Shown: in pieces, positions 33,104 through 41,649 of the stretch | Layout: the number at the start of each line of letters is the position of its first letter | How positions within the stretch are numbered: the first letter of the stretch is position 1 | Assembly: GCA_050012675.1 (NCBI GenBank) | Contig: JBEKGS010000009.1 | Location: 1,329-65,328, forward strand | Reading direction: 5' to 3' | From: Acidimicrobiales bacterium | Lineage (GTDB): Bacteria; Actinomycetota; Acidimicrobiia; Acidimicrobiales; Bog-793 | DNA: 64,000 bases | Notes under the pieces: generated by a model | What the model was told of the DNA's origin: nothing | Seen by the model: the letters and a program-made list of their open reading frames with translations, nothing else | The model's database searches: none | Made by a program: the position numbers and the translations under genes

Positions 33104-33943
33104 TCACAACTGGAGCACCAACGACTCCGCGGCGACGACGACCTGCGTCTCGGCGTCGAAGCGTTTCTCCAGCTCGTCGAGGGCGTTGTCGGTGCGGTCG
33201 GGCTGGTGGTGGAACAGGACGACTCGGCGGGCGCCGCCGCGACGCCCGAGCGCCACGGCGTACTCGGCCGCGGCGTGTCCGAAGGACGCGCCGGTGCTGA
33301 GCTCGTCGGCCATCAGCTGGGCATCGTGGACGAGGGCGTCGGCCCCCTCGGCGAGCTCCAGTGCGGCGGGGTGGTACTCGCCCCAGCCGTCGGGACCAGG
33401 GCCGACAAGGGTGGGACAGTGGTCCGGCATGTAGGTGAGCACCGAGGTCCCGTCGCTCACGCGGTATCCGTAGGTGCGTCCTCCTTTGTGGGGGATCTCC
33501 GAGGCCGTGACGGTGAAGCCCTCTAGTTGGATGACGCCCGGTGCCAGGTTCCGGAAGCTCCACCTGCCGCGGAGGCCCTCGGGGCCGATGGGGAAATGCG
33601 GCGGCGACATCCCCCGGGCGAGCACCTCAGAAGCGCTCGCAGCCCCGGGCTGTTCGGGCAGGTACAAGTCCACGCGGGAGTCGTCCCGGTCCCCGGCGGT
33701 GAAAAAAGGCAGGCCGTGGACGTGATCCCAGTGCAGATGAGTGAGCACGACCGTGCCGTCGAAGGCCGTGCCGCCCAACAGCGTGCCCACGCGTCTGATG
33801 CCGGTGCCGGCGTCCAGCAAGAGGCTGGGCGCCGCCTCGCCGTCGCGGGCGATCGCGACGCAAGAGGTGTACCCGCCGTAGCGGACGAAGTCTTCACCCG
33901 GCGCGGGGGTCGAGCCTCTGACACCCAGGAAATGGGCTCGCAC
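33104..33943 (-). CDS. MBL-fold metallo-hydrolase, probable cyclic-nucleotide phosphodiesterase
   Basis: GVRGSTP, DAGTG, THLHWDH, HDAQ and FHHQP motifs. Confidence 0.8.
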   Translation of the reverse strand: MRAHFLGVRGSTPAPGEDFVRYGGYTSCVAIARDGEAAPSLLLDAGTGIRRVGTLLGGTAFDGTVVLTHLHWDHVHGLPFFTAGDRDDSRVDLYLPEQPGAASASEVLARGMSPPHFPIGPEGLRGRWSFRNLAPGVIQLEGFTVTASEIPHKGGRTYGYRVSDGTSVLTYMPDHCPTLVGPGPDGWGEYHPAALELAEGADALVHDAQLMADELSTGASFGHAAAEYAVALGRRGGARRVVLFHHQPDRTDNALDELEKRFDAETQVVVAAESLVLQL

Positions 33944-33948
33944 CCGGG

Positions 33949-34953
33949 TCAGCCCGCTCCCGCATGCTCGCGACGGTGCCCGGTGGACAGCTCCTCGAGC
34001 GCTGAGCGGTCCAGCGCCTCAGCCGGGACTGATGCCACCCTGCACGAGGTCACCGCGACGATCGAGGAAGTGCGCTCTCCGCCTTCGAGATGGGCACGCT
34101 CGCCCAACAGCGCGCCCGGTCCGTACTCAGCCAGGCGTTTTCCCTCGACCTCGACGCGCAGCACGCCGTCGAGGACCAGGTACACCTCTGAGCCCTTGTC
34201 ACCCTGGCGTATCAGGTAGGTTCCCGACTTCACCTTCTTGATCTTAGGTTTGGCGGCCCCGTGCATCAGTTGTGCGGACAAGGACCGCTCGAGGGCGGAC
34301 TCGACGACGGTGACCAGAGCCTCGGAATCCTGGTCGCCCCAGGGGGTGTGAGTCCCGAAGGACTTGCGGTACCAGTCCTTGAAGTCGATGAGACCCGACT
34401 TGGCCTCGAGACGGCCCTCGTGGTCGTAGACCCAATGGCGTGGGAACCTGCTGGCGCCGATGAGCGACCCCTCGGCCCGGCCGTCGGCGTACAAGGTGAG
34501 CGAGAGCGTGGTCCACGCCAACGGGGCCTGCCACTGGACGAACGGTGCCCGGCGGACGCGTCGTGGTGCGGGCATGCCGGTACGGCCCCCGGCTGTCTGG
34601 ACGAACCGCCTCCAGCCGTCGCCGCGCTCGACCTTGCGCTGGATGTCGGGGAGAGCGACCGCCTGGAAGACGTGGCTCAGGCCGCCGATGCGCACCGTGG
34701 TGCTCCCGATCTGGCCACCGCCCGAATAGCCGGCATTGGTGATCTTGCCTGCGCGGTCCACCTCCACCCAGGCCTCCAGGCGGTTGGCGAAGCGGAAGCG
34801 GTCGGCTCGCCTGAGCTCGTCGAGGTCGCCGAGGACTTCAGGTGGCGGCGGGTCGTAGTGGGCCATCCCGGCGTCGAAGGGCAGGCGGGTACCGCCCGCC
34901 ACGGCTTCGGAGGGGATCCAAGACAGCGAGGTGATGGAGCTTTCGTATCGCAT
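33949..34953 (-). CDS. Cyclic nucleotide-binding domain protein with unrecognised ~225-aa N-terminal domain
   Basis: C-terminal LIRQGD, YLVLDG and GERAHLEGGERTSS phosphate-binding cassette. Confidence 0.85.
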   Translation of the reverse strand: MRYESSITSLSWIPSEAVAGGTRLPFDAGMAHYDPPPPEVLGDLDELRRADRFRFANRLEAWVEVDRAGKITNAGYSGGGQIGSTTVRIGGLSHVFQAVALPDIQRKVERGDGWRRFVQTAGGRTGMPAPRRVRRAPFVQWQAPLAWTTLSLTLYADGRAEGSLIGASRFPRHWVYDHEGRLEAKSGLIDFKDWYRKSFGTHTPWGDQDSEALVTVVESALERSLSAQLMHGAAKPKIKKVKSGTYLIRQGDKGSEVYLVLDGVLRVEVEGKRLAEYGPGALLGERAHLEGGERTSSIVAVTSCRVASVPAEALDRSALEELSTGHRREHAGAG

Positions 34954-35006
34954 AGGGCCATGATCTGCCGGTTGCCCAGCAGCTAGAAGGGTGTTGCCCA
35001 GACGCC

Positions 35007-35053
35007 GGGGGTGGTCCTAACACCCCCTTTCGCCCGGTGGCCTCCCCCCTTTC
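35007..35053. promoter_or_regulatory. Candidate response-regulator operator in a divergent promoter
   Basis: Inverted repeat GGGGGTG-N7-CACCCCC (35007-35027); CCCCCTTTC repeated at 35023 and 35045 (22-bp spacing). Confidence 0.5.
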
Positions 35054-35088
35054 TCGTGGGGTCGGAGTGTGCGACAACTTAGAGTGAC

Positions 35089-39420: not shown

Positions 39421-39426
39421 GCCGGC

Positions 39427-39819
39427 TCAGCTGGCGAAGCCGTCCGAGTCGCGTTCTTCCCAGAGCCGGCGAAGTGTCTTCGGGCTGAACTGCTCTTTGT
39501 GCATGTAGGCCCGGGCGCCACTCGTCCTGGCGTCTTCGGGCAGGTCGTTCACGTCGTAGGTCGAGCACAGGAACACCACGGTTCCGGGGTGCCCGGCCAC
39601 TATCCGCCGGGTCGCCTCCAAGCCGCCCATCTCGGGCATGTTTATGTCCATCAAGACGAGGTCAGGTTGGAGCGTGTCGGCGAGCGAAATTGCCTCTATC
39701 CCGTTGGCGGCCTCTCCGACCAGCTCGAAACCCTCGGTGCGGCGCAGCACGGCGCGCGCGGCGAGTCGGAAGGGGGCCTGATCGTCGACGACGATGACGG
39801 AGAGGGGGGCATCCATCAA
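39427..39819 (-). CDS. Stand-alone receiver-domain protein
   Basis: VDD, DINMP, ST and K receiver motifs; no output domain. Confidence 0.88.
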   Translation of the reverse strand: MMDAPLSVIVVDDQAPFRLAARAVLRRTEGFELVGEAANGIEAISLADTLQPDLVLMDINMPEMGGLEATRRIVAGHPGTVVFLCSTYDVNDLPEDARTSGARAYMHKEQFSPKTLRRLWEERDSDGFAS

Positions 39820-39883
39820 CTGTCCATTCTCCCATGGGCGGCCTGGCAGGTCCCGGGCGGTGCCACCCGAGTCCTCGGTGTAG

Positions 39884-40558
39884 CTAGCCTCCCGATTGCG
39901 CGCTCAAGTAAACGAGCACCGCCTTCACACGACGGTTGACGTCACGTTCCTCGGAGAGCCCCAGCTTGGAGAAGATGGCGTTCGAATGCTTCTCGACGGC
40001 TCGCTCCGAGACGCCCAGGGACTCCGCGATCGCCCCGTTGGACTTGCCCTGTGCCATCTCGGCGAGGATCTCGGACTCGCGGGGCGTCAGCCATTCGAGA
40101 TCGGACTTGCGCCGGCTCGCCCGCGCCTTGACCAGCTCGTCCACGACGAGAGGGTCGATGACGGACCCGCCGCCTGCCACCGCCCTTATGGCCTGCGCCA
40201 GCTCGTTGGCACCCGCGACGCGCTCTTTGAGGAGGTATCCGCGCCCGGCCGAGCCCTCCTGCAAGAGGGCCAGTGCGTAGGCCGGAGCGGTGTACTGGCT
40301 GAGGACCACGACGCCCACGGTCGGCGCGTGCTCGCGCAGCCACGCGGCCGCCTGGATGCCTTCGTCGGTGCCGGTCGGCGGCATACGGATGTCTGTGACG
40401 ACGACGTCAGGTGTGTGTTCGGTGACGAGCTTGAGCAACTGGGGGAGGTCCGAGGCGCTGCCCACCAGTTCGAGGTCGGCCTGAGCCTCGATGAGGCGCG
40501 AGACGCCCTCACGCAACAGGGCGTTGTCCTCCGCTAACACGACTCGGATCACGGCCAC
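39884..40558 (-). CDS. NarL/LuxR family response regulator
   Basis: AED, DIRMPP and YLLK; LTPRE..GKSN..IFSKL HTH. Confidence 0.92.
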   Translation of the reverse strand: MAVIRVVLAEDNALLREGVSRLIEAQADLELVGSASDLPQLLKLVTEHTPDVVVTDIRMPPTGTDEGIQAAAWLREHAPTVGVVVLSQYTAPAYALALLQEGSAGRGYLLKERVAGANELAQAIRAVAGGGSVIDPLVVDELVKARASRRKSDLEWLTPRESEILAEMAQGKSNGAIAESLGVSERAVEKHSNAIFSKLGLSEERDVNRRVKAVLVYLSAQSGG

Positions 40559-40776
40559 CGATGCGGGAGCCTAACTCTCAGCCAGGGCCGTGAGTAGGAG
40601 TTTTCCGGGACTCCCGGGCGCGGACTGAAAAAGCCCAGCGTCAAGTGGTGTTAGCGCGGTGGCGCCCCGGCGTGGTGCCCACATTGGTGGATGCTTCGGG
40701 CGGGGACACACTTCGAAGGACGGACTACGGGGCGCTTTTCAAAGGACGAAAGCCGTGATACAAGACTTGCCGACCA

Positions 40777-41649
40777 GGCGGTGACAGTGGGCCGCCAGGT
40801 TCTCCGCTTCGCACCTCCGATTCTGTCGGGACACGGGCTCGACGCCCGGGATCAGGTGGTTCTCGGGGCCATGACCTTGGCCGAGCTCCACAAGAAGCTC
40901 GGCGACAGCGTCACCCTCGACAACGGCTACCGCCGGCAGCGGCTGGTGATCGTCGGCACGGCGACGATGCCCTCGATGGGCAGCGGCGGACCCGACGACC
41001 TCGAGATGGGAAGCGGGGCTCTTGTCGCGACGAGCGACTTCTCGGTGGCGGCCCTCAACGTGCAGGAAGACCCGATCCCCGGACCCAACGCCGTCCTCGT
41101 CCGCATCAGACCGGGGTCGAACCCCTCGGCCGCCTACGGTTCCCTGGTGCAGGTGAACAACGCAGTCAACGCCCTGCCCGACGACGACCAACCGGCGGGC
41201 GGGGTCATTTCTTGCTACGGCCGGCCGAGATCGTCAACTACCGGTCGATGGGAGCAATTCCTGCCTACCTCGGTCTGGGACTGGCTCTGGGAGCGGTCGT
41301 CGCCCTCGGTCTCACGCTGGCGGCTTCGGTGCGGCGACGGCGTCGCGATCTTGCCGTGCTGAAAGTGCTCGGTTTCACCCGTCGCCAGATCGCGGGCTCC
41401 ATCGCCTGGCAATCGAGCACGGCGGTGTTGGTCGGGACGATCGTCGGCATCCCACTGGGCATCGCGCTCGGGCGTTTCCTATGGGACTCCTTTGTCCACG
41501 AGATAGACGTGATACCCGTGCCGAGCGTTCCCGCCCTCTGGATCGCGCTCGTCGCGGTGGGGGGTCTGGTCCTCGCCAAAGTCGTCGCCGCCGTTCCGGC
41601 GAGGATCGCGGCCGGCGCGCCCACAGTGGCGCTTGTGCGCGCGGAGTAG
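40777..41649 (+). pseudogene. FtsX-like ABC permease remnant (5'-truncated, frameshifted)
   Basis: One frame reads PPILSGH..VIS, another continues LRPAEIVNY..RRRRRDLAVLKVLGFTRRQ; one base appears missing near 41212. Confidence 0.75.

Follow-up and report, generated by a model that had tools for sequence, protein, structure and literature searches.

A conserved actinobacterial gene cluster that may join a branched two-component system with a receiver-cyclase to MacB-type (FtsX) permeases

Results

Gene content of the cluster

We analyzed a stretch of 64,000 nucleotides (the window) from an Acidimicrobiales bacterium, which corresponds to C9:1329-65328 of a 3.76-Mb genome in 139 contigs with an estimated completeness of 94%, and we describe in it a cluster of eight genes (Ox, M, B, C, A, K, r, and N) that encodes proteins of cyclic-nucleotide signaling, a two-component system, and an ATP-binding cassette (ABC) ATPase. 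Genes were called from the open reading frame (ORF) list together with Pfam and NCBIfam scans of 31658-41649; the G+C content across the region is ∼68-71%. The B gene (33949..34953, minus strand) encodes a cyclic-nucleotide receptor in which residues 1-205 belong to no family and residues 239-316 match the cyclic nucleotide (cNMP) domain cNMP_binding with E 9.8e-17. On the same strand lie M (33104..33943), encoding a metallo-beta-lactamase (MBL)-fold metallo-hydrolase and candidate cyclic-nucleotide phosphodiesterase (Lactamase_B_2, E 4.7e-16), and Ox (31658..33070), encoding a flavin adenine dinucleotide (FAD) oxidoreductase that is a distant relative of CrtI/CrtO and the amine oxidases and that ends the B-M-Ox row. 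The start codons of B and C are separated by exactly 135 bp (34954..35088), confirming the divergent control region proposed in an earlier note on this DNA. On the plus strand, C (35089..36495) encodes a receiver, a decayed LuxR-type helix-turn-helix, a helical linker, and a class III cyclase (Response_reg and Guanylate_cyc), and its stop codon overlaps the start codon of A at 36492-36495 in the ATGA arrangement that had been reported. The A gene (36492..37265), translationally coupled to C, encodes an ABC ATPase of the MacB/LolD/FtsE type according to NCBIfam and has no intact permease gene adjoining it, and K (37282..39420) encodes a sensor histidine kinase in which about ten membrane helices precede GAF, HisKA_3, and HATPase_c domains (Pfam). 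Two minus-strand genes are convergent with K: r (39427..39819), a single-domain receiver (Response_reg, E 6.2e-21), and N (39884..40558), a NarL/LuxR-type response regulator with Response_reg and GerE domains. Beyond them on the plus strand are overlapping permease pieces in two frames (40691-41362 and 41212-41649) that match MacB_PCD and FtsX in Pfam. Every gene that the earlier note had named was thus found in its place by ORFs, Pfam, and NCBIfam; the strand of r and N had been omitted there.

Conservation of the gene set

Orthologues of C were present in 22 of 40 relatives, in one piece (at least 427 residues) in 18 of them and fragmented or cut by a contig end in the remaining 4. The same neighbors were found in all 12 loci compared from relatives, of which two are cut by contig ends and one is rearranged, and three other families of the order are included. 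The rearranged locus, from another genus of the same family, has M, N, and r on one strand and K, A, C, B, and Ox on the other, with the same content. A larger set of related loci was made up of the best 80 of at least 465 stretches encoding a relative of C (pattern scan, one genome per species), and genes were counted in it with identity and coverage thresholds. Upstream genes were scored in the 65 loci that extend ≥4 kb upstream of C, and the others in the 56 loci that extend ≥6.5 kb downstream. Upstream, B, M, and Ox were present in 59/65, 55/65, and 40/65 loci, respectively; downstream, A, K, r, and N were present in 54/56, 50/56, 47/56, and 47/56 loci, respectively. All 80 carriers are metagenome-assembled genomes (MAGs) labeled uncultured Acidimicrobiales, Acidimicrobiaceae, 'Streptosporangiaceae', or Actinomycetota, and the carriers found are all uncultured actinobacteria of soil and peat. 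The ratios of nonsynonymous to synonymous substitution (dN/dS) against seven genomes of the same genus ranged from 0.06 to 0.19 for all eight genes (Ox 0.16, A 0.11, and r 0.06). The synteny expected from the earlier note was therefore borne out, both in the 12 loci from relatives and in most of the 80 further loci, and we conclude that the gene set is conserved and is more than a chance neighborhood. That these genes are simply neighbors with unrelated functions is scarcely credible, given that the set survives rearrangement in another genus, recurs across the 80 loci, and has an operator-like palindrome in common (see below).

Between 33000 and 41800 a scan for sigma-70 promoters gave no match, and terminator-like sites were no more frequent than in shuffled sequences. 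Contigs from RNA libraries of three studies matched M, B, C, K, r-N, and the permease remnant at ≥99% identity, one of them spanning the r-N junction, although such contigs are not proof of transcription. Four RNA runs left parts of the stretch without cover, which has no bearing on expression either way. One locus from a relative of another family (L014:3934-11119) carries two cyclase/AAA_16 (STAND-like) proteins of 1291 and 1108 residues after N, and in this locus the kinase gene directly precedes C with no ATPase gene between.

A response regulator joined to a cyclase

Residues 12-202 of C aligned with residues 4-199 of N at 47% identity over 196 aligned residues, a span that includes the GerE helix-turn-helix stretch of N. 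The GerE domain of N was matched in Pfam with E 1.8e-14, whereas no GerE match to C was obtained in Pfam at E ≤0.01, even though the stretch aligns with that of N. Where C aligns with the end of the GerE domain, a part of C that we take to be the recognition helix, several positions are occupied by acidic or small residues. The helix-turn-helix stretch is joined to the cyclase domain by a helical linker, itself highly conserved. Judged by its sequence, C is a duplicate of the neighboring NarL regulator N, with a decayed DNA-binding end, fused to an intact class III cyclase.

The nearest solved cyclases to C are 2w01, 6fht, and 3r5g. Its metal-binding aspartates (D267 and D311) are invariant in 7/7 orthologues and align with those of 2w01 and 3r5g, and the transition-state residues N388 and R392 are invariant in the same seven proteins; the enzyme is almost certainly active. 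The base-reading position is Gln in every orthologue (Q307; 7/7), in contrast to Lys in 3r5g and 6fht and Glu in 2w01, whereas the second base-reading position (T381) is Thr, as in 3r5g. At Q307 the protein thus fits neither the adenylyl subtype (Lys with Asp/Thr) nor the guanylyl subtype (Glu with Cys/Ser/Gly). Six of the ten cyclase genes in this genome encode Lys at this position, and Gln occurs in C only. A mycobacterial cyclase with Gln/Asn (Rv0386) is said to form cAMP plus some cGMP.

All three receivers of the cluster (C, N, and r) retain the acidic pocket, the phospho-acceptor Asp, the Ser/Thr, and the Lys, so the proposal that a single kinase has three candidate receivers is reasonable. 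The first receiver helix of C is like that of N and differs from that of r, which is consistent with a single kinase supplying both C and N. Dimers are the active form of class III cyclases, and phosphorylation causes NarL-type receivers to dimerize; taken together, these properties would provide a simple mechanism for the activation of C.

The cyclic-nucleotide receptor and the metallo-hydrolase

The phosphate-binding cassette of B (G284, E285, R294, and T295) is invariant in 38/38 sequences, and its cNMP domain matches those of PKG, PKA, HCN, and CRP by both sequence and fold (Z up to 14.5). The N-terminal domain (residues 1-205), modeled alone with a predicted local distance difference test (pLDDT) value of 81.6, is all-beta, and its sole clear fold match was 3c5p, a protein of unknown function (Z 11.8, root mean square deviation 3.9 over 168 residues), with the next match at Z 6.6. 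No family in Pfam or NCBIfam corresponded to this domain, a profile search of the PDB with B matched the cNMP part only, the ESM Atlas yielded nothing beyond unnamed actinobacterial clusters (best score 0.89), which are no more than a lead, and no paralogue was found in this genome. A profile of the domain nevertheless retrieved 1429 cluster representatives at E ≤0.001, in which it mostly precedes one cNMP domain, is accompanied by two in some cases, and stands alone in others, along with single TrkA_N and Mpo1-like cases; none of these fusion partners indicates a function. Its invariant polar residues are H32, Y33, D34, R54, R124, R172, H173, and K185.

The metal-site residues of M (H69, H71, D73, H74, H152, D174, H223, and H245) are invariant in 30/30 sequences. 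Its THLHWDH motif (residues 68-74) fits [T/S]HXHXDH, which is described as the signature of atypical class-II cAMP phosphodiesterases related to RNase Z (PMC9293780). This signature is unspecific, as alignments showed that RNase Z has it too. The score of M against the phosphodiesterase model NF041851 was 31 bits (cut-off 400) and its scores against RNase Z models were 36-48 bits, all far below the cut-offs; in one source its homologues are named 'phosphoribosyl 1,2-cyclic phosphodiesterase'. The assignment of M as the eraser of the signal, made in the earlier note, is consistent with the intact metal site and the signature but is not favored by the family models, which place M no closer to the phosphodiesterase than to RNase Z. 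We regard it as a guess, if a reasonable one. A prediction of the B-M complex (score 0.00, mark 0.32) speaks neither for nor against binding.

Alternatively, M may not be an eraser, and B, M, and Ox may form a small enzyme module in which a hydrolase and a flavin oxidoreductase act on a lipid, a xenobiotic, or an envelope compound under the control of nucleotide-loaded B. In most loci the three genes follow one another on the same strand (Ox occurs in 40/65), and Ox itself is a distant CrtI/CrtO-type oxidoreductase (Amino_oxidase and NAD_binding_8 in Pfam; CrtO in NCBIfam with 103 bits against a cut-off of 1000). The module would also suit the nearness of M to RNase Z, which equals that to the phosphodiesterase model, and the many invariant polar residues in the N-terminal domain of B, which would be expected of a catalytic or ligand site. 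On the other hand, Ox is absent from 25/65 loci, no substrate can be named for such a module, and M carries the [T/S]HXHXDH signature of the atypical class-II phosphodiesterases (PMC9293780). We consider this alternative unlikely.

In one related locus, B and M appear as a single 634-residue frame (L054:7934-9838, minus strand) comprising the unknown domain, the cNMP-binding domain, and Lactamase_B_2, in a Nanopore-type assembly; in L055, a duplicate locus on the same contig, B and M are apart. The kinase of another locus, L053, is in five frame-shifted pieces. The fused frame of L054 and a 695-residue 'ATPase' in L053 are probably indel artifacts of long-read assemblies.

The ATPase, the kinase, and the permeases

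The Walker A, Q-loop, LSGGQ, Walker B, and H-loop motifs of A are intact, its identity across relatives is 70-93%, and its best NCBIfam scores were 234 bits for MacB, 217 for LolD, and 211 for FtsE, all of them below the equivalog cut-offs. Of the 56 related loci, 41 have K immediately following A, 12 have a double-FtsX permease on the same strand in that place, and 1 has an opposite-strand permease; A was not found in the other 2. In one relative a permease of 787 residues with two FtsX domains separates A from K, and in seven loci (L040, L044, L054, L055, L092, L096, and L104) two to four double-FtsX permeases follow a single ATPase gene in tandem. The earlier note had regarded the ATPase gene as inserted between cyclase and kinase. 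Because FtsX permeases lie between A and K in 12/56 related loci, A is not an insertion and is better viewed as the predicted motor of a MacB-type (FtsX) transporter whose permeases adjoin it in those loci. Seven other contigs of this genome carry MacB-type ATPase genes, each with an FtsX gene within ∼1.5 kb, and A is the only MacB-type ATPase of the genome without a permease beside it.

The permease pieces to the right of N are the remains of a pseudogene (40814..41649, plus strand). When four intact permeases from related loci were used as tblastn queries, matches were obtained at 40814-41167 in frame 1 and at 41161-41646 in frame 3, such that the last ∼280 of ∼830-900 residues of a double-FtsX (MacB-like) permease are left in two frames. 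The remnant, which lies 1.3 kb beyond the kinase gene, is truncated and frameshifted, and what had been called an FtsX remnant is accordingly a decayed local copy of a double-FtsX permease. A permease follows N in many other related loci, as it does in the window. In the nearest relatives (L022 and L069), DprA and Ox are separated by a complete double-FtsX permease gene, where the window has ∼540 bp (∼31116-31657); both of the permeases linked to the cluster thus seem to be lost from this genome.

Elsewhere the genome encodes eight intact double-FtsX permeases of 818-968 residues that have no ABC ATPase gene within 3 kb and whose neighbors are unrelated. Across 41 genomes, A and this permease family were both present in 20 and both absent from 17, with A only in 1 and permease only in 3. 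The A-only genome is 70% complete and is matched by another permease query, and two of the three permease-only genomes are incomplete, with C at a contig end. One orphan permease has, ∼1.6 kb upstream and on the other strand, a gene for an ODP-type MBL domain fused to a GGDEF diguanylate cyclase (G000 C32:7948-9972, L113).

The N-terminal third of K is hydrophobic, and about ten membrane helices can be read from its sequence. The idea that this membrane domain is a hidden FtsX permease was rejected, as the hhalign probability was 0.35%. A could still dock on the ten-helix membrane domain and so form an ATP-driven sensor that needs no permease: K directly follows A in 41/56 loci, often with overlapping stop and start codons, and A is under purifying selection in a genus whose local permease has decayed. 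However, the unlikeness of the membrane domain to FtsX permeases, the permeases that lie between A and K in 12/56 loci, and the intact orphan permeases of the same genome all speak against such an arrangement, which we find very unlikely.

An operator-like palindrome

Alignment of the B-C region of the window with 21 of the 49 usable related intergenic regions revealed a conserved 16-bp palindrome. The family consensus is GTGGTGCTAGCACCAC, and the window copy (35011..35026) has three mismatches to it. A second block of conserved alignment columns, AGGGTGnTGnCC (34988..34999), may represent an additional half-site of this palindrome. A degenerate copy with five mismatches and an intact left half (40645..40660) separates N from the permease remnant; related loci have sites with ≤3 mismatches between N and the permease.

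The whole genome (3.76 Mb) contains 22 sites at ≤3 mismatches and 191 at ≤4. A palindrome with 1-4 mismatches is located 89-152 bp upstream of the aligned start in six of the eight orphan permeases, and the chance of finding at least six of eight is ∼8e-9. In the related loci (1.37 Mb), 77 sites with ≤3 mismatches were found versus ∼8 expected at the genome rate; 51 of these precede B and/or C, 8 precede permeases, 7 precede r or N, 7 are intragenic (six correspond to a single conserved part of the M coding sequence), and 4 are located elsewhere. Palindromes with ≤3 mismatches also precede 4/16 permeases of three other genomes, and at ≤4 mismatches a site was found for 24/83 permease genes of the related loci compared to 155/3000 random windows. 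A wider regulon was considered and rejected, the other 17 genomic sites with ≤3 mismatches being mostly intragenic or beside unrelated genes.

As the only conserved DNA-binding protein of the set, N is the likely reader of the palindrome. A different regulator might recognize it instead, either another NarL-type protein or C itself by way of its remaining helix-turn-helix: a 2-mismatch palindrome lies near another HisKA_3/NarL pair of the genome, in one relative the palindrome is 58 bp upstream of a NarL-like paralogue, and the helix-turn-helix outline is kept in C. We judge this to be decidedly unlikely, considering that no other conserved DNA-binding protein than N (47/56 loci) is encoded in the cluster and that the helix-turn-helix-like stretch of C escapes detection as GerE and carries acidic or small residues at several aligned positions. 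The 2-mismatch site (G000 C14:47489; L115:2490) is situated within the 1.7 kb that separate a SIS-domain gene from the HisKA_3/NarL pair and adjoins an ORF with Lipoprotein_15 repeats.

Flanking genes

The cluster is flanked on the left by DprA (DNA_processg_A, 30120-31115). On the right (41752-43943) are a DrrA-type ABC ATPase and an ABC-2 permease, a separate pair that adjoins the cluster in two same-genus genomes as well. Further to the left, at 27950-30358, a plus-strand CYTH/CHAD ORF of 790 residues almost fully overlaps a minus-strand ORF of 771 residues in which NUDIX is matched at the end only. The CYTH-CHAD gene is probably real, with a short NUDIX gene at its left edge, and the long antisense frame looks like an artifact of high G+C content.

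Discussion

On balance we lean toward a reading of the cluster in which a branched two-component system is linked with an ABC transporter system of the MacB type (FtsX). The gene content, conservation, residues, palindrome, and orphan permeases were observed, and from them we infer each protein-protein, protein-DNA, and enzyme-substrate step of the following model. The polytopic kinase K, with its cytoplasmic GAF domain, would sense a signal in or at the membrane and pass phosphate to the receivers encoded beside it. A phosphorylated N dimer would bind the 16-bp palindrome in the B/C promoter and upstream of several of the dispersed double-FtsX permeases. Phosphorylated C would dimerize, and its cyclase, active only as a dimer, would make a 3',5'-cyclic nucleotide; cAMP is the likeliest product, with the invariant Gln leaving room for another nucleotide. 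The single-domain receiver r may serve as a phosphate sink or modulator. The nucleotide would be taken up in the canonical cNMP pocket of B, which would act through its N-terminal domain, and M, from the RNase Z/atypical class-II phosphodiesterase branch, would probably reset the signal. Finally, A would be the ATP motor of the double-FtsX permeases, which are adjacent to it in some relatives and in this genome are dispersed without an ATPase gene of their own.

Several observations weigh against this model. The product of C cannot be read from its sequence, since Gln is neither the adenylyl-type Lys nor the guanylyl-type Glu. M scored no better with the phosphodiesterase model (31 bits) than with RNase Z (48 bits), lies on the strand opposite B in two loci, and is apart from B in one genus. 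The genome-wide totals of 11 cyclase-domain and 12 cNMP-binding matches, about ten others of each, make cross-talk possible; with such numbers the messenger would not be private unless the product were unusual, and the descriptions of the cassette as self-contained and of its messenger as local are not supported. The palindrome was not found upstream of 2/8 orphan permeases of this genome or of 59/83 permease genes in the related loci (≤4 mismatches), and N is simply the most obvious candidate to read it. One genome of the same genus (G005, 92% complete) gave 10 permease matches, whereas A, C, and B had no match there with these queries; it is either a real exception or an assembly gap. Moreover, the relatives are not independent, so that the co-occurrence table for A and the permeases overstates the case and is suggestive only.

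Under a bolder version of the model, K and N together with the single ATPase A would control and power the dispersed permeases, N by switching them on through the shared operator and A by energizing any permease that is produced, while C, with its invariant Gln, would make a nucleotide other than plain cAMP that tunes the pumps post-translationally via the N terminus of B, acting as a new type of effector domain. This version is unlikely.

Individual parts of the cluster resemble known systems. Cyanobacterial CyaC is a receiver-regulated class III cyclase. Like CyaC and the Dictyostelium protein ACR (PMC3009899), C has a phospho-receiver ahead of a class III cyclase, such that the output of the two-component system would be a cyclic nucleotide. 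Unlike in CyaC-type cyclases, the receiver module of C comprises an entire NarL-type regulator whose helix-turn-helix has decayed, Gln replaces the base-reading Lys/Glu, and the gene is in an operon with those for an ABC ATPase and a kinase.

The cluster also invites comparison with the antibiotic-sensing Bce-type modules (BceRS-BceAB) of Firmicutes, in which a two-helix intramembrane-sensing kinase without a sensor domain is paired with an OmpR-type regulator. As in Bce modules, an FtsX-family ten-helix permease, an ATPase, a kinase, and a regulator are found together, and the order ATPase, permease(s), kinase occurs in 12/56 related loci. The Bce feature of a permease beside the ATPase and kinase is thus seen in those loci and not in the window, where only a remnant is left. 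In contrast to the Bce proteins, K has about ten membrane helices with GAF and HisKA_3 domains, N is of the NarL rather than the OmpR type, the cluster has a cyclase branch, and the permeases can be several and dispersed. The analogy drawn in the earlier note is therefore a likeness of layout only, the kinase and regulator being of other classes.

Dictyostelium cGMP-stimulated phosphodiesterases join MBL catalytic and cNMP-binding domains, a pairing that recurs here with the difference that B and M are two proteins. With Rv1339, YfhI, and CpdA (PMC9293780), M has in common the MBL fold, the [T/S]HXHXDH signature, a length of ∼270-280 residues, an actinobacterial origin, and kinship to RNase Z; this is a likeness by description, and the signature is common to RNase Z. 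The orphan permeases are like those of the ADOP family ('duplicated orphan permease', NCBIfam TIGR03434), double-FtsX permeases of ∼800-970 residues without an ATPase gene. Against TIGR03434 the window remnant scored 19 bits, below the cut-off of 622, and the intact orphans were scanned with Pfam only. The difference from ADOP is that this genome offers a candidate for the shared motor as well as a shared operator.

A literature search, which was not exhaustive, returned no paper describing the cluster. Receiver-cyclase fusions and Bce transporter-coupled two-component systems are known kinds of parts, and so are ADOP and the atypical MBL phosphodiesterases (PMC9293780). What is new is the recognition of A as the one motor without a partner, the decay of the local permease, the phyletic link, and the operator common to the divergent promoter and the dispersed permeases.

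Two protein families within the cluster would be worth solving, namely the widespread type of domain that precedes the cNMP-binding domain in B and has no Pfam family, and the cyclases with an invariant Gln at the base-reading position. The pair formed by C and N would be a clear-cut natural example of how a two-component regulator, once duplicated, can exchange DNA binding for the synthesis of a second messenger. With the ancestor N still adjacent to C, the specificity and insulation between the two branches are open to study. For the duplicated FtsX/MacB-type permeases that lack an ATPase gene, the source of the motor and the means of regulation are an old puzzle, to which this cluster would offer a concrete and testable answer in that it points to a single ATPase gene and a single operator.

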